From the NCBI GenBank assembly GCA_964506935.1, contig CAZDOD010000028.1, forward strand, positions 1-22,104: a stretch of 22,104 nt of DNA, given 5' to 3'. The position numbers and the translations under genes are program-made. Source of the stretch: an uncultured Thermodesulfobacteriota bacterium. GTDB lineage: Bacteria; Desulfobacterota; Zymogenia; Zymogenales; Zymogenaceae. Positions 3 to 21,715 of this stretch are shown piece by piece; position 1 is the first letter of the stretch, and every line of letters begins with the position of its first letter. Below the pieces are notes generated by a model. It ran no database searches and had not been told where the DNA came from. It worked only from the letters and a program-made list of their open reading frames with translations.

Positions 3-3000
3 TTTGGTGCCCCGACAAAATTTTCGATTAAGTATCAGCTGAATTTTTTGGAGGACGGCGACAGAATACGCATCTTGACCCTAACGACAAAAGATCAGCA
101 GCCCAGTGTGGCAGATGTCGGGATAAAGAGACTTTCCGTCGAGATTCGCCGTTCAGGTTCAAACTATTTCGAAATCTGGGGTTATGTCGACTCGGATGGG
201 ACATCATACTACTATGAATACTCTACTACCTCATGGACGTCCAACGGGACGGACTTCGTCAGGACAATTACTCCGGATTCGTGGTATGTCCAAATCGTTA
301 CGATCCACCCCGGAACCCAGAAAATAGAGCTTTCGACCGAGGATGTATCGAGCGGGAATGTCCGCACGGCACAGACAAACAACAAGATCTACAGGGACGG
401 AGATGACTGGTGGTGGTATCTGGGCGATGTATTTACCAACATTCATTTCGGCAGACTAAAGCTCGACTACATCTATGTCGAGGATATAAAAAAGAGGTGT
501 CACTGGTCTGCTCTCAACTCCTTTACTTCTGACGGGAGGATAAAGAGCGGATTTGACGGTTCTTATGTCACAGCCGTAAATGATCTTACGATAAGGTACC
601 GGGGGTCTTACACCGTAAAAAACGACATCCTATCTTTTGTGCCTCTGAGGGATTCTTTTTCTGTCCTAAACGATATCGGGAGGCGGGATACTACCTCTGT
701 CTCTTACTCGCATCAGATATTTCTCGATGGAGAAGATTTATCATCTGCCGTCGAAAAATGGGAGGTCAGCTACGATGAGGACTGGTTTACAAAGCGTGTG
801 AGCATAACATTGAGGGAAAATTCCATCCTTCGAGAAAAATCCCCCTATTTTTTTGGAGACGAGAATTTTTACGATCCCAGGATAGAAGTTTTTGTCGACG
901 AGGAATCGATCGGGCAGTTTTACTGGGAGAATTCCGGAGAAGAGATAAAAAGCGGGGATTATCAAAGCGATATCAACGGAAGGAGCAAGACAGCCCTTTT
1001 GGATAGACCTTTCTCCGAGTTGATAACAAAGTCCTTCTCTGAGGATATCTCCAAGAGAGAACTTGTTGAAGACCTCGCCTTGACAGTTCCGGTTCTGTGG
1101 AAAATCACAGATACGATTATTCCCGCAAGTACCTACAGCGTAAGAGAATCATCTCCGATCGAGATAATCAGGGAGGTGGTGGAATCGGGGGGTGGGAGGC
1201 TTTATTCAGATAATGAGGACAACCTCATAATCGACTATAAGGATTATGAGACAGAAGGAAAAGGCCCTGCACTTTCTCTGCGTACATCTGATGTCATCCA
1301 GACAGGTTATGAGCTCAGTATCCCCACAGGAGAGAATTCGGTCGATGTGGAGGGCTATGATGATGAGGAGGCATACGGGAGGTGGCCGGTGGTTCGGCTC
1401 TTCGCATCCAAGTCGAGCCTCAAATCAGACGGTCACGATTCTCTTGTCCTTACGGCGTGGTGCTATAACCCTAATGGGGATCTCAACGATGTAGAGGAGA
1501 TAATAGATGAGCAGAGGACTCCGTCAGATCCACACACGATCAGCACCGAAAAGACGATAAAGCGGGTAATAGGGATCTGGGAAGACGATATGGGATCCCA
1601 CGGTGATCTAATTGAAGGCCCATATGAAGTGGAGGGATCAAGGATCACGACGAAAGGCGATATGGCGAACATCTTACATCTCATCTCCTATGTGGGGGGT
1701 GATACGTGTTCGTTCTCCGTAGACCATCTTGCTGATGTGGAGGAGCCCGATGTCCTGATTGAAGGTGGTGTGGCCCGGACGACTTTAAGGGCGTCATCCG
1801 GCGGCGGTGGATTCATAACCGTCACGGCTACATTCCGTGGTCAGACCGATTCATTGGTAATAACCTTGGCGGATCCAAAGATAGGTTCAATCGATGGATG
1901 GGCCGATCCGACAAAAATAGCGAGAGGCCAGACCTCTACCATCACATGTCGGGTCGCAAATCCCGACGGCGATCCTGTAGAGGACGGCACGCCGGTCCAT
2001 TTTAAGTTGATTGAAGGTAGGGGAGTGATCGCCGCTGATGAAGAGACCGGAAAAATATATATAGAGTATGGTCTGACCAGCGAGGAAGCAACTTCAACAA
2101 CCGGCACAGAAGAGATAGCTGGCGAGGAAATTATATCTTCAACCGAGATAAACCTCTCAGTTAAGTTTCCGGTATCTAGCCTGATTTCCATCTATCGTAT
2201 CGTGGATGGTGAGCCTTATACGGACGTAAACTATGCAGACGGTGCAACTTTTACGGGGAATAAGGTCACACTTGATAAGACGCTCCCGGCGAGCAAGACC
2301 AAGGTTTCGGTAACCTATAAGTCGGGCGGTATAGCAAAGGTGTATTATTGCGCCCCCAAAGTGGATATCACTGAACCCGTAGAGCTCAGGAATCCTTTTA
2401 CCAATTATATACGATGTCGGGCAGGAGGGGAGGATGATCTTGTGGAGGTTGATGTGGGGGCGGTTCTGATAAGTCAAAGCGGGGCGGAGAGAACCAAAGA
2501 TAAACTCAACTGGAATTGGGTATATTTTCCGGGTCCCGAAAAGGATATTTGGGGCAACTTTGTTGCATCCGATTCCGAGTTGTTTCATGAAGAAAAAGAG
2601 GAGATACCTTACAAATCAGGATACGAGATCGAGTTTGATAACGAATCGACGGCAACGAGGCACGAAAACTGCAGGACATACTTAAAGGACATAAATGAGA
2701 AAAACAATTATATAGTCTGTGAAGTTGAGGGTAGAAGGATTCTTGTTTCAATCGATGAGATGGCCGGGGATAAAGTCAAAGGCATCAGGTATGTGAAGGA
2801 GGAGAATACCGAAAAACCAATTGAGGGGGCGACGGTGAAGATCGATTGGGACGGCGATGGGTACGATGCCGAGGACCCCGAAGATGAGACGCTAATTACA
2901 AAGGAAGACGGCTCGTTTGAGTTCGTTAAGGGTGTGCCGGGGGAGAACAACATAAGGATAGAACATGACAATTACGAGCTCTGTGATGGAATAATAGCAA

Positions 3001-3098
3001 TACCCGTTGAAGTTGGGAAGAACGGCAGCGCACCATACTATGAATATAGGCCTGTAGAGTATTACGCGGAAGTGAGATGGAGGTATGTAAAAAAATGA
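3..3098 (+). CDS. large phage tail-fibre / host-specificity-like structural protein (possibly a surface adhesin). It has Ig-like (Big-type) and carboxypeptidase-regulatory-like beta-sandwich segments. It is probably 5'-truncated by the window edge.
   Basis: The 1016-aa ORF 48..3098 is open in frame back to nt 3 with no upstream stop. The first in-window start candidate is TTG at 48 with no Shine-Dalgarno, so the gene probably begins upstream of the window. The Big-like segment is ...TSTITCRVANPDGDPVEDGTPVHFKLIEG... near residue 640. The CarboxypepD_reg-like segment is ...GATVKIDWDGDGYDAEDPEDETLITKEDGSFEFVKGVPGENNIRIEH... near the C-terminus. The protein is Ser/Thr/Asp/Gly-rich. It is followed by ATGA-coupled small ORFs and a lysis cassette, as in phage late operons. 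Confidence 0.6.
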   Translation, partial: FGAPTKFSIKYQLNFLEDGDRIRILTLTTKDQQPSVADVGIKRLSVEIRRSGSNYFEIWGYVDSDGTSYYYEYSTTSWTSNGTDFVRTITPDSWYVQIVTIHPGTQKIELSTEDVSSGNVRTAQTNNKIYRDGDDWWWYLGDVFTNIHFGRLKLDYIYVEDIKKRCHWSALNSFTSDGRIKSGFDGSYVTAVNDLTIRYRGSYTVKNDILSFVPLRDSFSVLNDIGRRDTTSVSYSHQIFLDGEDLSSAVEKWEVSYDEDWFTKRVSITLRENSILREKSPYFFGDENFYDPRIEVFVDEESIGQFYWENSGEEIKSGDYQSDINGRSKTALLDRPFSELITKSFSEDISKRELVEDLALTVPVLWKITDTIIPASTYSVRESSPIEIIREVVESGGGRLYSDNEDNLIIDYKDYETEGKGPALSLRTSDVIQTGYELSIPTGENSVDVEGYDDEEAYGRWPVVRLFASKSSLKSDGHDSLVLTAWCYNPNGDLNDVEEIIDEQRTPSDPHTISTEKTIKRVIGIWEDDMGSHGDLIEGPYEVEGSRITTKGDMANILHLISYVGGDTCSFSVDHLADVEEPDVLIEGGVARTTLRASSGGGGFITVTATFRGQTDSLVITLADPKIGSIDGWADPTKIARGQTSTITCRVANPDGDPVEDGTPVHFKLIEGRGVIAADEETGKIYIEYGLTSEEATSTTGTEEIAGEEIISSTEINLSVKFPVSSLISIYRIVDGEPYTDVNYADGATFTGNKVTLDKTLPASKTKVSVTYKSGGIAKVYYCAPKVDITEPVELRNPFTNYIRCRAGGEDDLVEVDVGAVLISQSGAERTKDKLNWNWVYFPGPEKDIWGNFVASDSELFHEEKEEIPYKSGYEIEFDNESTATRHENCRTYLKDINEKNNYIVCEVEGRRILVSIDEMAGDKVKGIRYVKEENTEKPIEGATVKIDWDGDGYDAEDPEDETLITKEDGSFEFVKGVPGENNIRIEHDNYELCDGIIAIPVEVGKNGSAPYYEYRPVEYYAEVRWRYVKK

Positions 3099-3451
3099 GC
3101 ATACATGTTATCTGTAAATACGATACCGGCGATAGACCCATGGAGGCGATCTCAGATAGCCTCATTATTACTGAAGGGGAGGCAAGAGAAAGAGGATACG
3201 CCGAGCTCAACCTCCGATGGAAGGTGAAATCGGTATATGATTTCAACATACCCTTCCCCGAGGGCGGACATATCTTAAGGCCGGGGCTCTTTGTTCGGAT
3301 CACATGTCCGGAGTTGGGTCTGTTGGCAGAAGACTTCTATATCGCAAAGATTACACTTTCGGGTGATGTAAGTGGTGTCATGATGAGGCTCGTTTGTGAA
3401 AATTATCAAGACTGGGAAGAAGAAGGCCAGGTACCGGACGAGGAGGAATAG
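3095..3451 (+). CDS. hypothetical small protein (118 aa) with an acidic C-terminus, translationally coupled to the upstream structural gene
   Basis: The listed ORF 3077..3451 has an in-frame ATG at 3095 that forms an ATGA overlap with the stop of the upstream gene (TGA 3096-3098), which is typical translational coupling. No recognisable motif was found. The C-terminus is ...EEEGQVPDEEE. Confidence 0.45.
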   Translation: MSIHVICKYDTGDRPMEAISDSLIITEGEARERGYAELNLRWKVKSVYDFNIPFPEGGHILRPGLFVRITCPELGLLAEDFYIAKITLSGDVSGVMMRLVCENYQDWEEEGQVPDEEE

Positions 3452-3525
3452 AGATGAACTTCTTTCTGCCATCGGAAATTGGATAATGGTGTGTTTTGTA
3501 TTGAAAAATGGGTAGATAAAGAGAG

Positions 3526-3798
3526 ATGAAATTCACAAATTTAGTGAGGGACATTGCGAGGAGGGAGGCCGTTGACAATTTCGTCACAGGGAGAATCACC
3601 TCGAAAGACTACAGGGGTAAGTTCACTGTGGAGATATGGGGGGGACTCGAGATAAAGGCATATAACGCCGGGGGGCAGGATATTGCGGTCGGCGATGCCG
3701 TTGCTGTAAGACTGATAGACGGTAATATCAACAAGGCCGAGATTGCGGGAAAGACCGCGAGAAAGACGGGCGACAGAAAGGTCGTCTTCTGGAGGTGA
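3526..3798 (+). CDS. hypothetical small protein (90 aa)
   Basis: ORF 3526..3798 is preceded by the purine-rich stretch aaagagag. Its stop TGA at 3796-3798 overlaps the starts of the next gene. It shares orientation and tight spacing with the flanking phage-like genes. Confidence 0.45.
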   Translation: MKFTNLVRDIARREAVDNFVTGRITSKDYRGKFTVEIWGGLEIKAYNAGGQDIAVGDAVAVRLIDGNINKAEIAGKTARKTGDRKVVFWR

Positions 3799-4022
3799 TG
3801 ATGGAAGGGAACGAAGACGGAAGCCGTATAAAGGCGGCGGAATTTCGCGGAATGATGCTTGAGCGGACGGAGATCATCTTAAAGGAGTTGGCTTCGCTAA
3901 AAATCACGGTCGAGGATCACACCAAGAGCATTGAGCGTTTGAAGATAAAGGCGTCTCTCTGGGGTTTTCTGGCCGGTTCTATCCCCGGGCTCCTGACGGC
4001 CTTGATTTTACTTTTGAGGTGA
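3798..4022 (+). CDS. XhlA-like small membrane protein with an N-terminal coiled-coil and a single C-terminal TM helix; phage lysis-associated
   Basis: There are three consecutive start candidates: GTG 3795, ATG 3798 and ATG 3801. GGAGG at 3791-3795 gives the best spacing to the ATGs. The amphipathic N-terminal region is ...ILKELASLKITVEDHTKSIERLKIKAS... and the C-terminal hydrophobic helix is LWGFLAGSIPGLLTALILLL. It sits immediately upstream of the endolysin, whose SD (GAGGTGA) lies in its 3' end. Confidence 0.5.
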   Translation: MMEGNEDGSRIKAAEFRGMMLERTEIILKELASLKITVEDHTKSIERLKIKASLWGFLAGSIPGLLTALILLLR

Positions 4023-4026
4023 AGCG

Positions 4027-4476
4027 ATGCCGAAGATGACATCTGGTGACTGGAGGCTGATTCGAAATTTCTCACCGGGGGAGAATTGGGGTGATCCCTA
4101 TCAGATGGATCGGGACCTCATCTACCTCCTCGAAGTCCTCCGCGGGCTATTCTGGTTTCCATTTTCTATCCACTGCGGATATCAGAAGAGGCCCGAGAAA
4201 CCGAGTAGCCAACACAATTTCGGGAAGGCGTGTGACTTTCACGTCGACGGGATGCCCTTTTCCGGTGCCGTGGATTTGATGCTCATCTTCATAGGGCCAA
4301 GGCCTGGGGGAATCGGGGTCTCCGAAATCATCGGCCTCGGCATTTACCCCCACTGGAAAAATCCCGGCTTTCACATCGATACGAGGGGTGAAAAGGCGCG
4401 CTGGGGGGCGGTGATGAGCAAAGGGAAGCAGGTCTACGTCTCCTTTTCCGAGGCGTATCGGAAAATTGTGAGTTGA
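4027..4476 (+). CDS. peptidase M15 family (VanY / L-alanyl-D-glutamate peptidase-like) cell-wall hydrolase; a phage endolysin with no signal peptide
   Basis: The zinc-peptidase signature S-x-H-x-x-G-x-A-x-D is present as SQHNFGKACDF, followed by FHVD and a second GFHID motif. There is no N-terminal signal or TM segment, so export would depend on a holin. A strong SD, GAGGTGA, lies 5 nt upstream of the ATG. Confidence 0.8.
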   Translation: MPKMTSGDWRLIRNFSPGENWGDPYQMDRDLIYLLEVLRGLFWFPFSIHCGYQKRPEKPSSQHNFGKACDFHVDGMPFSGAVDLMLIFIGPRPGGIGVSEIIGLGIYPHWKNPGFHIDTRGEKARWGAVMSKGKQVYVSFSEAYRKIVS

Positions 4477-4477
4477 G

Positions 4478-4567
4478 ATGGTCGTTTCAGTAATATTCGC
4501 ATTTTTAATCGCCGTCATCTTCATAATAATCTTTCGCCATCTGGAAGATTCCGATGACCAAGGATAA
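4478..4567 (+). CDS. possible 29-aa single-TM micro-protein (MVVSVIFAFLIAVIFIIIFRHLEDSDDQG)
   Basis: An ATG lies 1 nt after the endolysin stop and opens an ORF that is almost entirely one hydrophobic helix. It is too short for the ORF track and has no clear SD. Its 3' end overlaps the start of the holin-like gene. Confidence 0.2.
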   Translation: MVVSVIFAFLIAVIFIIIFRHLEDSDDQG

Positions 4568-4802
4568 GGGGCGTCGGAGGGAAGGAAAATGGAGGATAGT
4601 CTTCGTCAAGGAGGACGGGACGATAAAGGGAGCATGGATTGCCACGGGTGTCACATTTCTTACCTTCGGGCTCTTTGGTGTGGGGGTATTTTGGGAAAGG
4701 GCCGCAGACAACCTCGAGAAATTCGGGATCTATCTCGCCAGCTCCTATTCAGTGACGATCGGGGCGTATTTGTTGAAAAAGTATAAGGAGGATGCAAGGT
4801 GA
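4554..4802 (+). CDS. holin-like small membrane protein with two TM helices (class II topology)
   Basis: The 82-aa product has a basic N-terminus (KDKGRRREGKWR) and two hydrophobic helices, AWIATGVTFLTFGLFGVGVFW and IYLASSYSVTIGAYLL, with a charged C-terminus. GGAAGA lies upstream of the ATG. The gene sits in a lysis cassette next to the endolysin. Confidence 0.55.
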   Translation: MTKDKGRRREGKWRIVFVKEDGTIKGAWIATGVTFLTFGLFGVGVFWERAADNLEKFGIYLASSYSVTIGAYLLKKYKEDAR

Positions 4803-5029
4803 AGGAGAAGATCAAGAAGTATCTCATCTGGGTATTGGTCTGTATCATTGTGATCTTATTGATTTACGGTTTTTTTCAAAAGAGGCGGGCCGATAAGATA
4901 ATCCACGAGTCTGAGATCGGAATAGACCTCGACGCCCAGGAGAGGATCGAAAGGGAGGTAATTCCAAAGGTGCTCGATGAAAAGACGACCGACGAATTGA
5001 GCCGAATGGGAGGTGTATTGTGGCAGTGA
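4799..5029 (+). CDS. small type-II (N-in, single N-terminal TM) membrane protein with a charged periplasmic tail; i-spanin-like or holin-accessory
   Basis: The GTG start at 4799 forms a GTGA overlap with the stop of the previous gene. The SD AAGGAGGA at 4785-4792 lies 6 nt upstream. The N-terminal helix is YLIWVLVCIIVILLIYGFF, followed by a highly charged region (ESEIGIDLDAQERIEREVIPK...). Confidence 0.5.
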   Translation: MKEKIKKYLIWVLVCIIVILLIYGFFQKRRADKIIHESEIGIDLDAQERIEREVIPKVLDEKTTDELSRMGGVLWQ

Positions 5030-5430
5030 GAAATTTGGGGTATCGAATAGTCGGGCCGATCTTTTTGAGCATTTCGCTTTTATTAATTTGTGGCTGTGCC
5101 ACGGTATCGCATGTCGTAAACCCCCCGCCGAGGGCGACCGATCTCCTCTACACTGAAGACGATGTGATGGATGTCATCGATGAGCTTTCAAAGGGTGAAA
5201 TAGGAGATGAGGACGCCGTGTATTTCGACGGAGAACGCTACTCCTTAAAATCCGGTGTCTATAAAAAGGCCGTAAAGGACGGTGTAGTAAAAAGGATCCA
5301 GGAGAAAAAGATCAGGGAGTTCATAACTGAATACGACCGCGAGACAATAGCTGACGCCGTAAAAAAAGACCTCGGAACGGCGGGGCTGATCGTATTGATC
5401 ATGGTGGTACTGGGGGTTTTGTTGTTGTAG
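5020..5430 (+). CDS. lipoprotein with a lipobox signal and an additional C-terminal TM helix; unimolecular-spanin-like topology
   Basis: The GTG start at 5020 follows the SD GGGAGGTG at 5008-5015 and overlaps the stop of the previous gene. The N-terminus ...LSISLLLICGC ATV fits the lipobox pattern, with cleavage before the second Cys. The extreme C-terminus AGLIVLIMVVLGVLLL forms a TM helix at the end of the protein. Confidence 0.55.
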   Translation: MAVRNLGYRIVGPIFLSISLLLICGCATVSHVVNPPPRATDLLYTEDDVMDVIDELSKGEIGDEDAVYFDGERYSLKSGVYKKAVKDGVVKRIQEKKIREFITEYDRETIADAVKKDLGTAGLIVLIMVVLGVLLL

Positions 5431-13191: not shown

Positions 13192-14520
13192 CTACATGAT
13201 CGGGAGATAGTTTTCGATCTCGTACCGGCTTACGTGAGTCCTGAATCGATCCCATTCGATCTTTTTGTTTTCGATGAATTTATTGAAGATGTGTTCCCCC
13301 AGGGCTTCTTTTACAAGTTCACTCTTCTCAAGCTCCGATACCGCCTCGTAGAGGTTCCCCGGCAGTTCAATGATGCCCCGATCCCTCCTCTTTTCCGGAG
13401 AAAACTCATAGACGTCCTCTTCGATCGGGGATGGAATTTCGTACCCTTCCTCGATCCCCTTTAGGCCAGCGGCCAGCATCACCGAAAATGCGAGATATGG
13501 ATTGCAGGCGGGGTCGGGAGACCGGAACTCAATCCTCGTTGCCTTCTCCTTTCCGGGCTTATACTGGGGGACCCTGACCATCGTCGACCTGTTTCGCCTC
13601 GCCCAGCTTACGTAGACCGGGGCCTCGTAACCCGGAACGAGCCTCTTGTAAGAGTTCACCCACTGGTTGCATATTGCGGTCATCTCCCTCGCATGCTTTA
13701 GTATCCCTGCGATGTACCCCTTGGCGTCCTGTGAGAGGTTGAGCGGATCGGAGGGGTCATGGAATGCGTTTCTTTCGCCTTTGAAGAGCGACTGATGTGT
13801 GTGCATTCCGCTCCCGTTGATACCGAAGATCGGCTTGGGCATGAAGGTGGCGTAAAATCCGTGCTGGCGCGCTATCTCCTTTACCGTCACCCTGAGCGTT
13901 GTGAATTTATCGGCCATCCTCAATGCCTCGTCGTAGCGCAAGTCGATCTCGTGCTGGCTCGGTGCGACCTCGTGGTGACTGTACTCGATATCGATCCCGA
14001 ATTTCTGCAGGGCGAAGATCGTCTCCCTCCTTAATATTCCAGCGAGATCCAAGGGGGGTGCGTCGAAATATCCGCCTTCGTCTAAGACCTTCGGCTCCTT
14101 GTTGTCGGCGAAGTAGAAGAATTCGGGTTCGGGACCGACATAAAACGTATACCCCTTATCCTTTGCCTTTTGGATCGCCCTTTTTAGGGCATACCTCGGA
14201 TCGCCCTTGTAGGGGCTTCCATCGGGCTCAAGAATATCACAGAACATCCGCGCAACCGGTTTTTCTTCGTCACGCCACGGGAGGAGCTCAAGGCTCGCCG
14301 GATCGGGTTTTGCGATCATGTCGCTCTCTTCTATCCTGGCGAATCCCTCGATCGACGAACCGTCAAATCCCATTCCTTCGGAGAGCGCCTCCTCCATTTC
14401 TCCGGGTGTGACCGCAAAGCTTTTCAGAATACCGAGGATATCGGTGAACCAGAACTGAACGAAGCTTACATTCCTCTCTTTGATGAGCGATAAAACATCT
14501 CTTTTTGTGTTTGCTAACAT
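13192..14520 (-). CDS. glnA: glutamine synthetase type I
   Basis: The product has the GS beta-grasp N-terminal domain (...VLSLIKERNVSFVQFWFTDILG...) and the catalytic domain (...GSGMHTHQSLF..., ...RVPQYKPG...). The listed ORF begins at 14562 (MFFSFKKRKETGKEM...), but the ATG at 14520 (MLANTKRD...) follows the purine-rich stretch GAAAGGAAACAGGAAAGGAA. It also gives the N-terminal length expected from GlnA alignments, so 14520 is preferred; 14562 remains possible. Confidence 0.9.
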   Translation of the reverse strand: MLANTKRDVLSLIKERNVSFVQFWFTDILGILKSFAVTPGEMEEALSEGMGFDGSSIEGFARIEESDMIAKPDPASLELLPWRDEEKPVARMFCDILEPDGSPYKGDPRYALKRAIQKAKDKGYTFYVGPEPEFFYFADNKEPKVLDEGGYFDAPPLDLAGILRRETIFALQKFGIDIEYSHHEVAPSQHEIDLRYDEALRMADKFTTLRVTVKEIARQHGFYATFMPKPIFGINGSGMHTHQSLFKGERNAFHDPSDPLNLSQDAKGYIAGILKHAREMTAICNQWVNSYKRLVPGYEAPVYVSWARRNRSTMVRVPQYKPGKEKATRIEFRSPDPACNPYLAFSVMLAAGLKGIEEGYEIPSPIEEDVYEFSPEKRRDRGIIELPGNLYEAVSELEKSELVKEALGEHIFNKFIENKKIEWDRFRTHVSRYEIENYLPIM

Positions 14521-14636
14521 TTCCTTTCCTGTTTCCTTTCTTTTTTTAAAACTAAAAAACATGTTTTTTGTTTTGGCTTCTCAAAAACCTCCTCAAATAG
14601 ATGTGTTGCCCAAAAAATTATGGGAGGTTTTTACTT

Positions 14637-15923
14637 TTAGTTGACCTTCTTCTTTGAGAGTATCTCCGTGATATCCAATCCTGTAGCACTTTTGATACCC
14701 TCAAAAAACGCCGATGTTGCACCTGTTATCCCCTTTACATAAGCGGGGATTCCGTTTCCGTCACCGCCGTCGAGGATGGTGACTTTATCGATCTGGAGGT
14801 TGTCTTTGATGACGCTCGTGACCTTGTCGATGATGTATGGGAGCTGCTGAATTAGATAAAGCTCTCGAGTCTCCTCCTTTTCCCACTCCTCGCGTAACGC
14901 CTTGATTGCCTCGGCCATTGCCTTTCCGTCCTCAACGATTTGTGCGGCTTCTCCCTTCGCAAGCAAAAGCGACGCCTCTTTCTGCGCCCGGGCGGGGATG
15001 ATGGTCTCCGCCTCGTATTTCTTCTGGTTCTTCTTTATGCGGGCGTCTTCGAGCTTTGCCTCTTCGGTTACCTTTGAGATCTCGGTTGCAACGAGTGCCT
15101 TCGATTCGGCGGTGTTGACGTTGGTGGCAAGCTCTGCCATTTTGATTTTCATTTTGTTCTCGGCCTCGATAACGGCGATGTCGGATTCGTACTCCGCCAC
15201 ACTCCCCTTCTTTTTTGCCTCCGCCGCAACTACGCGGGCTTCGGCTTCCGACTCCGATTCGGAAATGAGGGCATCACGCTTGACTTCGGCGCTTCTCTTC
15301 CTCCCGATGTTTTCGAGATAACCGGTGTTGTCGGAAATCTTCTTTATCTTGAAGGTATCCAATACCAGGCCCAGCTTTTTTAGATCTTTTTGCGCCTCGT
15401 CAGAGACCTTTGCCGCAAAATCGATCCTCTTTTCGTTCGCATCTTCCGGAGTCAGTGTTGAGAGGACACCACGAAGACTACCCTCAATTGTGTGCTTGGC
15501 AACCTGAGAGATATCCGTTACGTTCCTTCCCAAGAACCTCTCTATGGCGTTTGTGATCCCTTCGGTCTCTGTACCCGCTATTTTCACGTTTGCCGATGCC
15601 TCGACATCCAATGGGATGAGCCCTTTTGTGAGGGTACCCAAAAGCTCCATGTCGAGCGGTATTATGTTCAGAGACATTCGAGAGACCGATTCGACTATAG
15701 GTATCTTGAGTCCCCTTCCACCCTTGATGACCCGGTAGCCCACGATTGTCCCGTCTTTTAGCCTTCGCTTTTTGCCGGAAAAGATCAAGAGCTCATTCGG
15801 GGGGGCGATAACAAGGTTGACCTTGATGAATGTCAAGATTAAAGCCACAAGAATAACTCCCACCGCAATAAGGACACCTATTTTATCTGGAGAGAGTTCC
15901 ATAGTTATACCTCCTAATTCCAT
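14637..15923 (-). CDS. flotillin / SPFH (band-7) domain membrane protein, YqiK/FloT-like
   Basis: The 428-aa product has an N-terminal TM helix (IGVLIAVGVILVALILTF), an SPFH domain, and then a long Ala/Glu/Lys-rich coiled-coil (...EAEARVVAAEAKKKGSVAEYE...EEAKLEDARIKKNQKKYEAE...). Two in-frame ATGs at 15923 and 15902 are each preceded by AGGAGG. Confidence 0.85.
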   Translation of the reverse strand: MELGGITMELSPDKIGVLIAVGVILVALILTFIKVNLVIAPPNELLIFSGKKRRLKDGTIVGYRVIKGGRGLKIPIVESVSRMSLNIIPLDMELLGTLTKGLIPLDVEASANVKIAGTETEGITNAIERFLGRNVTDISQVAKHTIEGSLRGVLSTLTPEDANEKRIDFAAKVSDEAQKDLKKLGLVLDTFKIKKISDNTGYLENIGRKRSAEVKRDALISESESEAEARVVAAEAKKKGSVAEYESDIAVIEAENKMKIKMAELATNVNTAESKALVATEISKVTEEAKLEDARIKKNQKKYEAETIIPARAQKEASLLLAKGEAAQIVEDGKAMAEAIKALREEWEKEETRELYLIQQLPYIIDKVTSVIKDNLQIDKVTILDGGDGNGIPAYVKGITGATSAFFEGIKSATGLDITEILSKKKVN

Positions 15924-15957
15924 GTTTAAACCTCCTTTATGTTCACTGTCCGATTTA

Positions 15958-16299
15958 CTATCCGATGGCCTGTCTCCCCCTCTCTCCCGTCCTTATTCGG
16001 ACGACCTGGGGGAGATCGAGGACAAAGATTTTTCCATCACCTATGTTTCCCGTTCGGGCGCCTTTTATGATGGCATCGATGGTCGGCTCGACATACTCTT
16101 CGTTTACGGCTATTTCGAGCCTTATCTTCTTCAATAGATTGATCTCTTTTGGAATACCTCGATAAGTCTCTGTATAGCCCATCTGCCTCCCGGCACCGAG
16201 AGCGGTGCTTACCGTCATCAGATATATCTCGTTTTCATAAAGCGCCTTTTTGACGTCGGGGAGTCTTTGGGGCTGTATAATGGCAACAACAAGTTTCAT
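15958..16299 (-). CDS. glnK: P-II nitrogen regulatory protein (GlnB/GlnK family)
   Basis: The 113-aa product aligns along its full length with P-II ([10 protein letters not shown]...MTVS...G.GRQ.G.TE.YRG...KIFV.D...IRTGE). It lies 18 nt downstream of amt on the same strand. The T-loop reads [16 protein letters not shown], with neither Tyr51 nor Ser49. Confidence 0.9.
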
Positions 16300-16317
16300 A
16301 CACTTTCCTCCTATCTA

Positions 16318-17808
16318 TTACTCGGTGGTGAAGATCTGAAAACTGGGATACGCTTCCATGCCGTGTTCTCCTATATCGAGTCCGCGAAGTTCTTCCTCGG
16401 AAGTGACCCTCAAGCCAATGAGACTGTTGATTATATAGAAGAGGGCAAAACCGCAAGTGATCACAAAAGAGAAGACGCTGATTACGCCGATCGTCTGAAT
16501 TCCGAGGAGCTTCCATCCGCCCCCGTATAACAGACCTCCATCGGTTGCAAAGAGTCCCAGGGCGATTGTACCCCACGCACCGTTTACGCCGTGGACGGCG
16601 ATTGCGCCGACCGGATCGTCGATTTTCAGTGTCTTATCGATAAAGATCACGGCGAGTACCACAAGCGTTCCTGCTATCATGCCGATCCATACCGCACCCC
16701 CGGGGCTGACAAAGGCGCACGGTGCCGTAATGGCAACAAGCCCTGCCAATGCCCCGTTGATGGCCATGCTCGCATCCGGTTTTTTGAACAGCCACCATGA
16801 GATAAACATGGCAGAGATGGCACCGGCACCGGCCGAAAGGTTAGTCGTCGTAACGATGTGTGCGATATCCTTTGCCGAGGCCTCCATGGTGCTTCCGGCG
16901 TTGAATCCGAACCAGGCGAACCACAGGATGAAACCGCCGAGTGCGGCGAGCGGGATGTTATGTCCGTGAATAGCCTTTGGTATGCCGTCGGCATCGTATT
17001 TGCCGAGTCTCGGCCCCAGTATCACGACGGCAGAAAGAGACAGCCAACCCCCAACGGAGTGGACCACCGTTGATCCTGCAAAGTCGAGAAAGCCGAGTTC
17101 CCCAAGCCAGCCGCCGCCCCATATCCAGTGGCCGACAACCGGATAGATGAACGCCGAGATGACAATCGTGTAAAAGATGTAGGCGGTAAACTTGGCCCTC
17201 TCGGCAACCGCTCCCGCAACGATAGTTGCAGCGGCGCCGCAGAATACGAGCTGGAAGAAATACTTCGCCTCAAGTGGCACGGTCGTCCAAGATAGGGAGT
17301 TGAATGTACCCCCGGCATCATGGAGAAAAAAGCCGCTTGTGCCGAATAGGGCGTTTCCCGCACCGAACATGATGGCGAACCCGACCGCCCAGTATGTAAT
17401 GGTCGCAAAGCAGAAATCCATCACGTTTTTCATGATCAGGTTGACGGAGTTTTTGGCGCGGATGAATCCCGCCTCGAGCATGGCAAATCCGGCTTGCATG
17501 AACATGACGAGGACCCCGGCGATGATGACCCAGACAGTGTCGAGGTCAGTCTTGTAGATCTGGATTAATTCCTCCTCCTCGGCTTTGGTGACTTCAGCTT
17601 CTTCATAAACTTCCGGGCCTTGAGTAATCTCTCCCTCGGATCCCATCTCCACATCGGGGATTTCGAGGGCACCCTCTTCGCCTATCGAAGTATCGACTGC
17701 TGTTGCATCGAGGGGCGCCTCGCCCTCCTCCTGGGCGAAGACGATCATAGTGGTGGTTGCGAAAAGAATGGATACCGCAAGGAGTACCCATATTTTTTTA
17801 TCTATCAT
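16318..17808 (-). CDS. amt: ammonium transporter (Amt/MEP family) with a signal peptide and an acidic periplasmic N-terminal extension
   Basis: The Amt signature ...DFCFATITYWAVGFAIMFG... and 11 TM segments are present. The listed ORF starts at 17820 (MEGSMIDKK...), but the ATG at 17808 (MIDKK...) is preceded at good spacing by GGAGGG, so 17808 is preferred. Confidence 0.9.
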   Translation of the reverse strand: MIDKKIWVLLAVSILFATTTMIVFAQEEGEAPLDATAVDTSIGEEGALEIPDVEMGSEGEITQGPEVYEEAEVTKAEEEELIQIYKTDLDTVWVIIAGVLVMFMQAGFAMLEAGFIRAKNSVNLIMKNVMDFCFATITYWAVGFAIMFGAGNALFGTSGFFLHDAGGTFNSLSWTTVPLEAKYFFQLVFCGAAATIVAGAVAERAKFTAYIFYTIVISAFIYPVVGHWIWGGGWLGELGFLDFAGSTVVHSVGGWLSLSAVVILGPRLGKYDADGIPKAIHGHNIPLAALGGFILWFAWFGFNAGSTMEASAKDIAHIVTTTNLSAGAGAISAMFISWWLFKKPDASMAINGALAGLVAITAPCAFVSPGGAVWIGMIAGTLVVLAVIFIDKTLKIDDPVGAIAVHGVNGAWGTIALGLFATDGGLLYGGGWKLLGIQTIGVISVFSFVITCGFALFYIINSLIGLRVTSEEELRGLDIGEHGMEAYPSFQIFTTE

Positions 17809-17861
17809 AGATCCCTCCATTTCGAAATTGGCAAAAGAGTTTCAGTTTGCTCCTATATAGA

Positions 17862-17877
17862 GCAAATTTGTTGCCAA
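17862..17877 (-). promoter_or_regulatory. sigma-54 (-24/-12) promoter directing transcription toward amt
   Basis: The minus strand reads cTTGGCAACAAATTTGCTc. This is TGGCAA-N5-TTGCT against the consensus TGGCAC-N5-TTGCW, with the GG and GC doublets 10 nt apart. It lies about 55 nt upstream of the amt start and about 100-140 nt downstream of palindromic candidate enhancer sites. A GAFTGA-containing sigma-54 activator is encoded immediately upstream. Confidence 0.65.
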
Positions 17878-17974
17878 GATTTACAAGCCTTGCGAGTAAG
17901 GCTGTAAGCTATTGAAATTAAAGGGATTTTTATGTTGGGGCTATGGAGTATGAAGGGACAATAGGTTCATAAAG

Positions 17975-18018
17975 CCTACATATTGGTAGGAAATAACTAT
18001 AAAAGCTACCTTTTGGTA
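17975..18018. promoter_or_regulatory. composite palindromic element: CCTAC-N6-GTAGG (17975-17990), a 16-nt spacer, then TACC-TTTT-GGTA (18007-18018). Candidate enhancer/UAS for the amt sigma-54 promoter.
   Basis: Two dyad-symmetric motifs are read directly. The same two motifs recur at 19587-19630 with an identical 16-nt spacing and mirrored order. The element lies 100-155 bp upstream of the -24/-12 promoter, the canonical position for enhancer-binding-protein sites. The second motif overlaps the activator gene's stop codon. Confidence 0.45.
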
Positions 18019-19568
18019 CTAAATTTTTTCGGGTCGATGCCGTATCTCTTGACCCGAAGGCCCATCAGTCTCTCGGAAATGCCTAGGGTTAGGGCGGCCT
18101 TTGCCTTGTTCCCCCTCGAGGATTTCAGGGCGTCGGAGATCATCTCCGTTTCGAGCGCCTGCAGGGACTCCTCGAGGGTTCCGCGTAAGTGAGTACCGGA
18201 CGCCTCGGCCGTCTGAAGGGTGGGGGGTAGGTGGTGGCCGTGGATGACGCCGTCGTTGCTCAACAGTACAGCCCGCTCGATGCAGTTTTCAAGCTCACGG
18301 ACATTTCCCGGCCAGTGATAGCTGATCAGCATGTCGATTGCAGGGGTTGAGACACGCCTTATGCTTTTGTGGTTGAGACCGCTGTATTTTTCGACGAAGT
18401 AGTCGGCGAGGAGCAAAATGTCGGCGCGCCGTTCCCTGAGCGGCGGGATATGGATCGGAAAGACGTTGAGGCGAAAATAGAGGTCCTCACGGAAATTTTT
18501 TTCCTCAATGAGTTTTTCGAGGTTTCTGTTTGTGGCGGCGATGATTCTGACATCGGTCTTGATCGTCTTGGTGCCTCCGACCCTTTCAAATTCGCGCTCC
18601 TGAATGACCCGAAGGAGCTTGATCTGTGTCTGGGGGGATAGGTCGCCGATCTCGTCGAGGAAGATCGTCCCGCCGTGGGCGAGTTCAAACCGCCCCTTTT
18701 TCGTTGCGTGTGCGCCGGTAAAGGCGCCCTTTTCGTGCCCGAATAGCTCGCTCTCGATGACACTGTCGGGAAGAGCGGCGCAGTTGACCTTGATAAAGGG
18801 GTTGTTTGCTCGTGGGCTGTCAAAGTGAATGGCGCCGGCGACGAGCTCCTTTCCGGTTCCGCTCTCTCCGTAGATCAGGACGGTCGTATTGCTCTTCGAC
18901 ACCTGGCCGATCAGGTCAAAGACCTCAAACATTCGTTTCGAGTTGCCGATGATGTTCTGGGGGCGGAAGCGGTCTTTGAGCTTTTCTCTAAGACGGATGT
19001 TTTCGTCGAGGAGCTTCTGTCTCTCTTCCTGTGCCGATCTCCTTAGATGTACGGCCTGGGCGATCAGCGAGGCGATGATGGAGAGGAGTCGGAGGTCGTC
19101 AGAGAGCGAGATATCTTCGTTATAGATACGGTCGAAGCTGAGGGTGCCGATGACCTCGTTTTCAAGCTTGATCGGCACACAGATAAATGAGATATCGTCG
19201 GCGGCGGAGTCTTTGCTGATACCGGTTCGGTTGAGAAACTCGGGTTCTTCGGAAATTCTCGGAACTACTATCGGCTCTTTTGTCTCTACCACCTTTCCCG
19301 TCACGCCCTCGCCGATCTTGTATCTCCCCCGTTCCTTTTGGGAATCGGAGAGCCCGTAGGCCGAGTCGATAAATATATCGCCGGTATGTCTGTCAAGGAG
19401 GGTGATGGTGCCGTGTAGCATGTTCATATATGCAGCCATTTTTTCGAGGACGGGCCCCACGACTTCCCGAAGATCCATGCTCAAGTCGAGGGTGCGGCTT
19501 ATCTCAAAGATAAGGTTTAGTTCACTGGATTCCCGCTTGTTTTTGTAATCTCGGCCGATTGGTTCCAT
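18006..19568 (-). CDS. sigma-54-dependent transcriptional activator with an N-terminal GAF sensor, an AAA+ sigma-54 interaction domain and a C-terminal Fis-type HTH; NifA/NtrC-like but without a receiver domain
   Basis: The 520-aa product has a GAF-like N-terminus. Walker A is ...YGESGTGKELVAG..., the GAFTGA motif is ...GHEKGAFTGA..., and the HTH is ...RGNKAKAALTLGISERLMGLRVKRYGI.... It sits directly upstream of the sigma-54 promoter of the amt cluster on the same strand. Confidence 0.9.
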   Translation of the reverse strand: MEPIGRDYKNKRESSELNLIFEISRTLDLSMDLREVVGPVLEKMAAYMNMLHGTITLLDRHTGDIFIDSAYGLSDSQKERGRYKIGEGVTGKVVETKEPIVVPRISEEPEFLNRTGISKDSAADDISFICVPIKLENEVIGTLSFDRIYNEDISLSDDLRLLSIIASLIAQAVHLRRSAQEERQKLLDENIRLREKLKDRFRPQNIIGNSKRMFEVFDLIGQVSKSNTTVLIYGESGTGKELVAGAIHFDSPRANNPFIKVNCAALPDSVIESELFGHEKGAFTGAHATKKGRFELAHGGTIFLDEIGDLSPQTQIKLLRVIQEREFERVGGTKTIKTDVRIIAATNRNLEKLIEEKNFREDLYFRLNVFPIHIPPLRERRADILLLADYFVEKYSGLNHKSIRRVSTPAIDMLISYHWPGNVRELENCIERAVLLSNDGVIHGHHLPPTLQTAEASGTHLRGTLEESLQALETEMISDALKSSRGNKAKAALTLGISERLMGLRVKRYGIDPKKFSTKR

Positions 19569-19586
19569 TGGTATCTTTCTTGAAAG

Positions 19587-19630
19587 TACCTTTTGGTATG
19601 ATTATTGTCCAAAACCTACGATATTGTAGG
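19587..19630. promoter_or_regulatory. second copy of the composite palindromic element: TACC-TTTT-GGTA (19587-19598), a 16-nt spacer, then CCTAC-N6-GTAGG (19615-19630). It lies immediately upstream of the activator gene start and is a candidate autoregulatory operator.
   Basis: The 12-mer TACCTTTTGGTA is identical to 18007-18018. The CCTAC-N6-GTAGG arms are identical to 17975-17990. The spacing is 16 nt in both copies. It sits 19-62 nt upstream of the activator ATG (19568, minus strand). Confidence 0.45.
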
Positions 19631-20080
19631 ATATCAAAAGGCTTTTGTCAATAGCTTTGTTGAGAGGTTGTCGTTATAGAAAAATCAGAGTTTGATAGAT
19701 AGAAGATGGTCTTCTCTAAAGATGGCTTTTTATAAAGTAAAGGCCAAAATGAAAACCGTAATCTAAAATAGGGAAAGCATACAATTCATCGGAAATATAA
19801 TATATCAGGGGATGACTTCGATTACAATTTAATATTGGAAAATGACACATTAAGTGATATATTCGAATATTGGTCTGGCTTCCTTAAGATGGTAACCATT
19901 AAAAAAGTCCCTAGAGGTTATCAGCTTTTTGCCTGTGATCTTTTGATATTGAAGCCGGAATATTTACATGGGGCTATAGATAAACCTATCGGATATGATG
20001 AAAAAATACAGGATATATCGGTGCCGTGATGTGTACCATGAAGATATCTGATTTTCCTATTTGCTTTACGGGGTGTTGAA

Positions 20081-21715
20081 ATGAATATCTCAAAATCGTG
20101 GAGTGCAAAAGACAGGTCCGATTACGTAAAGGAGCTTTCCGAGACTACCTACGACGTCCTGATCGTCGGCGGCGGTATTACTGGCGCCGGTGTCCTCAGG
20201 GCGTTGGGGCTTCGCAACATCAAGGCCGCCCTGATCGATAAGGAGGATTTCGCCTTCGGGACGTCATCGAAGAGCACGAGGCTCGCCCACGGCGGGATGA
20301 GGTACATCTTCAATAAGGAATACAGGCTGGTTTCCGAGGCGTGTCACGAGAGGGACTGGCTGAGGGGCGCCTTCCCGAACCTAGTTAGGCCTACCCCGGT
20401 CATGTTCATCAACTTCAGTTTAGAGGTCGCAAAGATCATGGGAAGAGCCTTCCGTCTGTATGACCTCCTTTCGGGGTTCGGGAATTACAAGAACTATCGC
20501 CACATACCGCTCGAAGGCCTGAATAAACACGAGCCGAAAATAAAGATTCCAAATGTCCACTCGGGGTGCCTCATATATGAGTGCGTCATAAACGACGCCC
20601 GCCTGACCACGGATGTCATAAAAGAGGGTGTTTCTCTCGGCGGCGTTGCCCTAAACTACGTTGAGGCAAAAGGGGTCGTAAAAAAAGACGGTAAGGTCAC
20701 CGGTATCAGCGCTTTGGATAAAGAGTCCGGAGATTCGTTTGTTATCTCGGCAAGAAACGTCGTAAATGCCTGTGGGCCGTGGACGGACGACCTGATGACA
20801 GGGGGAAAAAAGAGGATTATCAGGCCCACGAAGGGTGTGCATCTCGTGGTCAGGCGCGAGAATGTCGGAAACCTCGGCGGATTGTATTTGATGAGTCCCG
20901 TCGACGGCCGCGGTGTTTTTTTGCTCGCCCACGGAGATTATACCTACCTCGGCACGACCGACACCGATTACAATGGCGACCTCGACCAATGCTATACCGA
21001 CAGGGACGAATATCAGTATCTCAAAAAGGTTATCGATCACTGTTTTCCCGACGCGAAGTTTGAAGAGGAGGACCTACTAGGTAGCTACGCCGGTATCAGG
21101 CCACTGGTGCTGGAGGAGGGCGTCTCCGAGACGAAGACGTCCCGAAAGGAGCTGATAGACGAGATCATGCCGGGTTTTTTCGTCATCACGGGTGGAAAGC
21201 TAACGATCTTTCGCAGCATGGCCGAAAAGCTCATCGCCTTTATGGGAAAGAGGGGCGCCCTCGACGTCAGGAGGTTCGGCAAGAGGCGCTCAAAATCCCG
21301 TTTGCTTATGGGGATGAAGGCGGGTAAGTGGAAAAAGTCCGCCCCGAAAGTGGGGCTCGAAGATGGGATTATGGAACATATCTACCAGAACTACGGGAGA
21401 GGGGGGATATCGATCCTCGATTTGGTTAAAAAAGACTCCTCTCTCGGCGGTATCATCACGGACGGCCAGAATAATATTTGGGCCGAGCTAGAATACAGCC
21501 TCGAATATGAGCATGTGACTCACGTCAAGGATTTTCTCCTTCGCCGAACAAACCTCTCGCTCTACCAGCGTGACGGTCACGAAGATCTGGGTAGGGAGGT
21601 CGCGAAACGCATGGCGAAGTATCTCGGATGGGATGAGGGGAGGACAAAAAGGGAGATTTCCGATTACGTCGACATCGCCCACAAGAACAGCTTTTTTCTG
21701 AAAAAGAAATCTTAG
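20081..21715 (+). CDS. glpD: FAD-dependent glycerol-3-phosphate dehydrogenase (GlpD/GlpA family)
   Basis: The FAD-binding motif is DVLIVGGGITGAG. The motif ...GTSSKSTRLAHGGMRY...YRLVSEA...ER.WL parallels the E. coli GlpD block ATSSASSKLIHGGLRY...FRLVSEAL.ER. At 544 aa the length fits the GlpD family. GGGGTG lies upstream of the ATG. Confidence 0.85.
   Translation: MNISKSWSAKDRSDYVKELSETTYDVLIVGGGITGAGVLRALGLRNIKAALIDKEDFAFGTSSKSTRLAHGGMRYIFNKEYRLVSEACHERDWLRGAFPNLVRPTPVMFINFSLEVAKIMGRAFRLYDLLSGFGNYKNYRHIPLEGLNKHEPKIKIPNVHSGCLIYECVINDARLTTDVIKEGVSLGGVALNYVEAKGVVKKDGKVTGISALDKESGDSFVISARNVVNACGPWTDDLMTGGKKRIIRPTKGVHLVVRRENVGNLGGLYLMSPVDGRGVFLLAHGDYTYLGTTDTDYNGDLDQCYTDRDEYQYLKKVIDHCFPDAKFEEEDLLGSYAGIRPLVLEEGVSETKTSRKELIDEIMPGFFVITGGKLTIFRSMAEKLIAFMGKRGALDVRRFGKRRSKSRLLMGMKAGKWKKSAPKVGLEDGIMEHIYQNYGRGGISILDLVKKDSSLGGIITDGQNNIWAELEYSLEYEHVTHVKDFLLRRTNLSLYQRDGHEDLGREVAKRMAKYLGWDEGRTKREISDYVDIAHKNSFFLKKKS

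Follow-up and report, generated by a model that had tools for sequence, protein, structure and literature searches.

A conserved 16-bp palindrome, paired on both sides of a NifA-like sigma-54 activator gene, marks predicted enhancer and operator sites in a nitrogen-assimilation locus of an uncultured Thermodesulfobacteriota bacterium

In E. coli, NtrC (NRI) acts at glnALG through two strong dyad sites about three helical turns apart, located roughly at -110 and -140 of the sigma-54 promoter of glnA, and it also represses the sigma-70 promoters glnAp1 and glnLp by binding over them, which results in negative autoregulation. For the single-component sigma-54 activator DVU1949 of Desulfovibrio vulgaris, a purely comparative-genomic study (Kazakov et al. 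2015, BMC Genomics 16:919, PMC4641369) predicted a regulon labelled "Nitrogen metabolism and transport" (DVU1231-1233, DVU3392, DVU1258, DVU1823-1821 and others). The DVU1949 sites are 16-bp palindromes of the TTTACA-N4-TGTAAA type (e.g., GTTACATTTTTGTAAT, TTGACATATATGTCAA and TCTACATTTTTGTAAG), several of them in pairs 30-32 bp apart (PMC4641369, supplement 4). They precede the sigma-54 promoters of those operons and are also found upstream of the DVU1952-DVU1949 operon itself, which was proposed to be autoregulated (PMC4641369). In the literature that we searched, DVU1949 is mentioned in this computational study and nowhere else. Here we analysed a 22,104-nt stretch of DNA from an uncultured Thermodesulfobacteriota bacterium (contig CAZDOD010000028.1; hereafter the window), in which the gene of a NifA-like sigma-54 enhancer-binding protein is flanked at both ends by a pair of palindromes. 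We propose that these four dyads are probably binding sites of the adjacent activator, the downstream pair being a predicted enhancer of an ammonium transporter (amt) operon and the upstream pair a predicted operator at the activator's own promoter.

All genes of this regulatory locus are on the minus strand, and the activator gene lies at 18006..19568. By direct reading of the sequence, a left copy of the element consists of CCTACATATTGGTAGG at 17975-17990, a 16-nt spacer and TACCTTTTGGTA at 18007-18018, and a right copy consists of TACCTTTTGGTA at 19587-19598, a 16-nt spacer and CCTACGATATTGTAGG at 19615-19630, just as an earlier note on this DNA had described. The same note regarded each copy as a composite of two independent palindromes, but this part of its description has to be revised. 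TAC-N6-GTA is the form of all four elements, which belong to a single motif, and a one-mismatch search found that TACATATTGGTA, inside the left 16-mer, is TACC-N4-GGTA with one mismatch; the dyads are therefore not independent. Each copy is instead a strong and a weak version of one 16-bp palindrome, with a centre-to-centre distance of exactly 30 bp. Downstream of the gene these are the strong site D2 (17975..17990, minus strand; CCTACCAATATGTAGG on the gene strand) and the weaker site D1 (18005..18020, minus strand, around the 12-mer core), and upstream of it the weaker proximal site U2 (19585..19600, minus strand, around the second 12-mer, in the predicted 5' leader) and the distal site U1 (19615..19630, minus strand; CCTACAATATCGTAGG on the gene strand), the strongest of the four.

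With a matrix derived from the orthologs, the scores of D2, D1, U2 and U1 are 20.1, 15.9, 16.4 and 22.4 bits, respectively, and the next best match in the window reaches 10.7 bits. CCTAC-N6-GTAGG occurs in the window at these two places only, against a shuffled expectation of 0.37, and two or more matches were found in 5/100 shuffles. In none of 300 Markov-simulated windows did two sites scoring 9 bits or more stand 29-31 bp apart, whereas the real window has two such pairs. A chance origin is thus very unlikely, as had been supposed. An A or T at the inner position is present in one half only of each strong window site, and the weak window sites have C/G there. The two gene-proximal weak sites are nearly identical and point in the same direction on the gene strand, so that TACCAAAAGGTA is found twice in the window. 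In the closest ortholog locus, L083 (loci are numbered with the prefix L), the gene-proximal sites at 360-375 and 1941-1956 read TACCAAACGGTAGC and TACTAAACGGTAGC, and L084 is alike in this respect. Coding constraint applies to only one of the two weak sites, and the non-consensus C/G and the orientation of the A-tract are common to both.

To place the sites in an evolutionary frame we collected about 85 orthologous loci (58-75 % identity) from a genome scan with the full-length protein (~15 useful loci among the matches listed, which were mostly unrelated activators), three exact-protein look-ups and a metagenome scan with an alignment of the GAF domain, which gave 80 orthologs; 61 loci of unrelated sigma-54 activators, taken from the same genome scan, served as a control set. 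When every 4-mer dyad with spacings from 0 to 12 was counted in the ortholog flanks, CTAC-N6-GTAG ranked first on both sides of the gene (33/83 loci upstream and 23/67 downstream, vs ~0.35 in shuffles), followed by the enriched variants TACC-N4-GGTA and TACA-N4-TGTA. Symmetrised, the matrix gives a-t-C-C-T-A-C-[A/C]-w-w-w-w-[T/G]-G-T-A-G-G-a-t, and the family consensus is CCTAC[A 0.47 / C 0.30]-N4-[T/G]GTAGG. Ahead of the start codon, matrix matches are concentrated at -60..-50 and -30; at the other end of the gene they are concentrated at stop-10 and stop+20, of which stop+20 is the main downstream peak in 67 orthologs; inside the activator coding sequence, used as a control, their density is 0.019 per kb. 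Adjacent sites are 30 bp apart in 22/31 downstream pairs (29-31 bp in 29/31), and upstream the distance is 29-31 bp in 19/22 pairs. Orthologs with diverged flanks preserve the motif positions only.

The motif is also specific to the family of the activator. Sites of at least 12 bits flank 70/85 orthologs and 6/17 relatives at 45-58 % identity, but 0/61 of the other sigma-54 activators, and the orthologs span such distant lineages as Spirochaetes, Thermodesulfobacteriota and metagenome-assembled genomes (MAGs) labelled Planctomycetes. The comparison of orthologous intergenic regions that the earlier note had called for thus shows a motif conserved on both sides of the activator gene, and conservation and simulation together support its view that the elements are non-random cis-regulatory sites.

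The likeness to the DVU1949 sites covers the TACA-N4-TGTA core, the 16-bp palindrome, the pairing at ~30 bp, the position at sigma-54 promoters of nitrogen operons and at the regulator's own operon, and the single-component type of the sigma-54 activator; the family consensus of the window motif contains the ACA-N4-TGT core and stands at sigma-54 promoters of amt-PII and glnA. The two motifs differ in their outer bases, which are TT/AA or TTGACA there and CC/GG here, and position 4 is often C here. In some relatives at 51-56 % identity that have a different recognition helix, sites of the ATTACATTTTTGTAAT or TTTACAAAAATGTAAA type were seen near the gene (L005 at 1101, L006 at 5564, L027 at 3707 and 5657). 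DVU1949-like outer bases together with a different recognition helix hint that the outer motif positions may covary with the helix-turn-helix (HTH) domain. Compared with NtrC, the half-site centres are likewise 11 bp apart, as in NtrC-type Fis-HTH dimer sites, and the targets are likewise genes of nitrogen assimilation, whereas the sequence differs (CCTAC-N6-GTAGG here vs TGCACC-N5-GGTGCA).

Downstream of the activator gene is the operon that the sites would control. The only good -24/-12 match near the genes of the locus, TGGCAACAAATTTGC, lies at 17862..17876 on the minus strand, 42 nt upstream of the ATG of amt at 17820. The target operon spans 13192..17820 on the minus strand and comprises, as assigned with Pfam, amt (17820..16318), the PII protein gene glnK (16299..15958), an SPFH/Band-7 protein gene (15923..14637) and the glutamine synthetase gene glnA (14562..13192), in the same order as in L083. 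The SPFH/Band-7 (stomatin-like) membrane protein is encoded between the PII gene and glnA, and it has the same place in L083 (4218-5504). Measured from the -12 GC of the amt promoter, D1 is centred ~150 bp and D2 ~120 bp away, and for sites at the place of D2 the distance in orthologs clusters at 118-122 bp. With sites at stop-10 and stop+20 and a promoter at +132, the layout of the window matches that of the orthologs, many of which have a TGGCAC-N5-TTGC promoter at stop+~120-156, most at +131 to +135. Equivalent -24/-12 promoters were found in 41/68 orthologous downstream regions, and the activator is followed by an Amt gene in 23 loci and by a glutamine synthetase gene in 9. In L082, L089, L098, L102 and L148, extra site pairs with a sigma-54 promoter are located ahead of glnA.

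Sigma-54 enhancers are dyad sites ~80-200 bp upstream of a -24/-12 promoter, usually two or more on one helix face, and their motif co-occurs with a cognate activator that has a DNA-binding domain; the downstream pair shows these features. The earlier suggestion that the left copy stands at enhancer distance from the amt promoter is borne out by the geometry that orthologs conserve, and the pair is most likely the upstream activating sequence of this promoter. In contrast to glnALG, the regulator gene here is upstream of the target operon and not at its end. From the sites to the promoter, an A/T-rich patch is all that the orthologs conserve. In this interval of the window we noticed a tentative integration host factor (IHF)-like site, TTTCAATAGCTTA (17905..17917, minus strand), with one mismatch to WATCAANNNNTTR. 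IHF-like matches were present in 10/31 orthologous spacers vs 3.3 in shuffles and were clustered 34-47 nt upstream of the promoter; that such a site is part of the system is tentative.

D1 is written into the end of the activator gene, and the overlap of its 12-mer with the stop codon and the last three codons, pointed out in the earlier note, is real. The site spans AGT ACC AAA AGG TAG, in which the protein ends as ...KKFSTKR* with the stop codon at 18006-18008. In the orthologs that are in register (n = 26, with the tail F-x-T-x-x-stop), the site takes the form nnT ACn nnn nnG TAR, and the wobble positions follow it. The last sense codon ends in G in 26/26 (gene-body G3 0.35; P = 1.5e-12), and codon -4 ends in T in 16/26 (gene-body T3 0.13; P = 1e-8); at codon -4, CGT accounts for 12/22 arginines vs 10 % elsewhere. 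Of these 26 orthologs, 20 stop with TAG, 6 with TAA and none with TGA, whereas TGA is used in 17/44 out-of-register orthologs. RF[RS]T-x-x-end is the prevailing tail among the 120 best homologous proteins listed. The stop-codon site is selected at the DNA level.

The right copy, 19-62 nt upstream of the activator ATG at 19568, coincides with a predicted promoter of a different type. A promoter scan gave a near-consensus sigma-70-type match (19623..19651, minus strand; 11/12) with a -35 TTGACA at 19651..19646, a 17-nt spacer and a -10 TACAAT at 19628..19623. This TACAAT is the left half of U1 on the gene strand, and U2 follows 30 bp downstream in the predicted leader. The TTGAC-N17-(CC)TACAAT arrangement recurs when orthologs are aligned on the U1-type site: a -35 element matching at least 5/6 is located 16-18 nt (mostly 17) upstream of the in-site -10 in 33/64 orthologs vs 1/49 downstream control sites. 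No -24/-12 promoter was matched between the upstream pair and the ATG, where the 18 nt leave no room for one. U1 thus overlaps the regulator's own predicted sigma-70 promoter, as operators do. With U1 lying over the -10 box, bound activator would most simply occlude the promoter and regulate itself negatively, and the upstream pair most likely limits the activator's own promoter, a sign of regulation that we infer from the overlap. The autoregulation proposed in the earlier note on the basis of the right copy gains support from this arrangement. A predicted operator on a sigma-70 -10 box distinguishes the window locus from the DVU1949 system.

With both ends of the gene described, the mirrored order of the sites can be judged. 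The order strong-weak-gene-weak-strong, stressed in the earlier note, does recur in the closest orthologs L083 and L084, but a mirror-symmetric device is not needed to account for it, because the distal upstream site must coincide with the -10 box and the first downstream site must fall in the last codons.

The activator is a protein of 520 residues with GAF, AAA+ and Fis-type HTH domains (Pfam matches: GAF, Sigma54_activat, AAA_lid_14 and HTH_8), a domain order that it has in common with NifA. Its closest solved chain is NifA 9qq6_C, aligned end to end (E = 3e-118). However, the TIGR01817 NifA score of 543 is only just above the cut-off of 529, and the match covers residues 15-448 only, ending before the HTH; the recognition helix is SERLMGLRVK vs TPRQIAYRIQ in NifA. 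The GAF domain is nearer to that of Aquifex Nlh1 (4g3k, 6e-27) than to the NifA GAF (8jrc, 6e-18); nothing was found on the target DNA of Aquifex Nlh1/Nlh2 in the literature searched. More than 8000 homologs were found at E <= 1e-40, the best 120 listed being 69-75 % identical, and the NCBI pipeline often names homologs "nif-specific transcriptional activator NifA" (P0014, P0026, P0044 and P0071 among them). A NifA upstream activating sequence, TGT-N10-ACA, is absent from both control regions (17860-18060 and 19560-19720). Regulation of nif genes was considered and rejected: the adjacent or motif-bearing genes are amt, PII, glnA, gltB-like and gdh, and no nif gene was seen in the neighbourhoods examined, whole genomes not having been searched. 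The marginal TIGR01817 match without the HTH, the missing TGT-N10-ACA and the amt, glnK, glnA, gltB and gdh neighbours make the "nif-specific" label look over-specific for the window activator and its homologs.

In function, the module of the window most resembles the NtrC/glnALG paradigm, except that a GAF sensor replaces the phospho-receiver and that the locus has no partner kinase. The DNA-binding domains of DVU1949 and of the window family have the pattern KAA..LG...R.MG.R. in common, and a search with the 42-residue domain of DVU1949 returned two fragments only. Leptospira EbpA, which activates amtB, was also considered as a relative; it has two GAF domains (FhlA-like) and no motif is given in the review, so it is an analogue at most. 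In L082, from a MAG labelled Planctomycetes, a stand-alone protein of 138 residues, whose only Pfam match on record is the Fis-type HTH_8, is encoded at 16038-16454 between the glutamine synthetase and NAD synthase genes of a nitrogen cluster; it could be a competitor for the same sites.

Could another protein bind the sites? The earlier note had read the TACC-N4-GGTA core as GTA-N8-TAC, the shape of CRP/NtcA-type sites, and had considered a second regulator, not of the sigma-54 type, as the binder. A CRP/NtcA-type regulator, or a nitrogen regulator of some other family, could in principle co-regulate the activator gene and the amt operon through them: the sequence does not directly identify the binder, a repressor at the -10 box need not be the activator itself, and NtcA resembles the present case in its trinucleotides GTA and TAC and in its role in nitrogen control. 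But the half-sites here are in the reverse order, TAC-N6-GTA, and neither GTA-N8-TAC nor the CRP (TGTGA-N6-TCACA) or NtrC consensus has a match in either control region. NtcA, moreover, acts at about -41.5 of sigma-70 promoters, whereas the present sites are ~-130 to -160 from a sigma-54 promoter. Since -24/-12 promoters require an activator bound at an enhancer, the enhancer distance of the sites disfavours a different binder, and so does the fact that a similar palindrome was assigned to the related activator DVU1949. As the motif follows the activator family across distant lineages (70/85 vs 0/61), we regard another binder as quite improbable. It is somewhat easier to imagine, though still unlikely, that the upstream pair is a remote enhancer of the amt promoter 1.7 kb off, or a positive autoregulatory element, and that its overlap with a sigma-70-like sequence is incidental. 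In L153/L154 (stop 5013), L159 (stop 1872), L134 (stop 3255) and L120 (stop 1781), a strong sigma-54 promoter lies 8-58 nt past the stop codon, no motif site was found downstream or in the coding region, and the only pair is upstream of the activator gene, ~1.6 kb away. These loci suggest that the upstream pair may also act as a remote enhancer, and NtrC enhancers work over kilobases (cited in PMC4641369). However, the in-site TACAAT with its 17-nt spacing from a -35, which recurs in 33/64 orthologs against 1/49 controls, would be difficult to account for if promoter and site were not meant to coincide, and the absence of a -24/-12 promoter between the pair and the ATG also speaks against this reading. 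Operator and enhancer roles are in any case not mutually exclusive.

Two further explanations do not involve a regulator at these sites. A hairpin with a 5-bp stem and a 6-nt loop is possible at each site, and the predicted 3' fold uses CCUAC/GUAGG, so that the palindromes might act in RNA, those downstream of the gene as a terminator or attenuator and those upstream as a leader hairpin. The fold, however, is no better than that of shuffled sequence (z = 0.40), and the promoter/terminator scan gave no terminator-like site there. In 148 sites the complementarity of the halves is what independent conservation predicts (e.g., 0.48 observed vs 0.47) with no compensatory changes, and it is the specific letters TAC/GTA that are conserved and not merely pairing partners. 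The palindromes thus have the properties neither of an intrinsic terminator nor of a structured RNA, and we give this explanation very little credence. Still harder to believe is that the element recurs by chance, or that it forms the terminal inverted repeats bounding a mobile cassette with the activator gene inside. An inverted composite does flank a single gene, and two occurrences of CCTAC-N6-GTAGG, taken alone, have a ~5 % chance. But no simulated window had even one pair, the diverged flanks of orthologs keep the motif positions only, the same pairs are found ahead of glnA with no activator gene between them, and the 12-mers are in direct, not inverted, orientation.

The reading that we prefer is that the neighbouring activator binds all four dyads. 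Dimers of the GAF-AAA+-HTH enhancer-binding protein would occupy the four copies of CCTAC[A/C]-N4-[T/G]GTAGG. D1 and D2, three helical turns apart, would present two dimers on one face of the DNA, which may nucleate the active AAA+ ring, and the ring would contact the sigma-54 holoenzyme by looping, possibly with the help of IHF. The upstream pair would be an operator, with the strong site over the -10 box and the start region and the weak site in the leader, and through it the activator would keep its own production down in the way that NtrC does at glnAp1 and glnLp. The same pair may double as a remote enhancer. The GAF domain presumably gates the activity via a nitrogen signal such as 2-oxoglutarate or PII.

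Several points weigh against this reading. The binding of the activator to the sites is a prediction from sequence comparison, and repression is read from the overlap of U1 with a predicted promoter. In the strong-flank count, 15/85 orthologs had no strong site in their flanks. At positions 4 and 9, the weak gene-proximal sites of the window have C/G where A/T is commonest. Furthermore, the DNA-binding domain of DVU1949 is identical to that of the family at only 14-19/42 residues, in a comparison limited to this 42-residue domain.

A broader interpretation is possible, which we hold more tentatively and rate as somewhat less than an even bet: the family annotated as "NifA" may be a general nitrogen-assimilation switch of many anaerobic lineages, a single-protein substitute for NtrBC with a self-referential layout of unusual rigidity. 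In such a layout the activator's own last codons and stop would be an enhancer site, and its C-terminal tail (T-x-x-stop, final G, TAG/TAA) would be shaped by its own DNA specificity. Its own -10 box would be half of another site, and the upstream pair would be both an operator and a kilobase-distant enhancer, the sole enhancer where the sigma-54 promoter directly follows the stop.

Elsewhere in the window, a 450-bp A/T-rich intergenic region (19631-20080) separates the activator promoter from a divergent gene at 20081-21715, the product of which resembles flavin adenine dinucleotide-dependent glycerol-3-phosphate dehydrogenase. Several sigma-70-like matches were found at 19631-20080, but no motif sites and no -24/-12 promoter. 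At the other end, seven small same-strand open reading frames (75-149 residues) without a Pfam match are found at 3077-5430 on the plus strand, and ahead of this run, at 48-3098 on the same strand, is a protein of 1016 residues with only a weak carboxypeptidase-regulatory-like match.

The system is essentially a classical bacterial nitrogen switch, a similar motif was already predicted in 2015, and the known principles of sigma-54 control are unchanged by our finding. What goes beyond the literature we found is the site embedded in a stop codon with its wobble constraint, the putative operator embedded in a -10 box, the rigid geometry of 30 bp and ~120 bp, and the wide spread of the family. 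The stop-codon site illustrates cleanly, for bacteria, how a regulatory site constrains coding sequence. For a very common and little-studied regulator, the analysis provides a testable wiring diagram that joins the motif and the enhancer geometry to a predicted operator and to the target operons. With the motif matrix, nitrogen regulons could be charted in anaerobes of sediment and gut, namely Thermodesulfobacteriota, Spirochaetes and MAGs labelled Planctomycetes.

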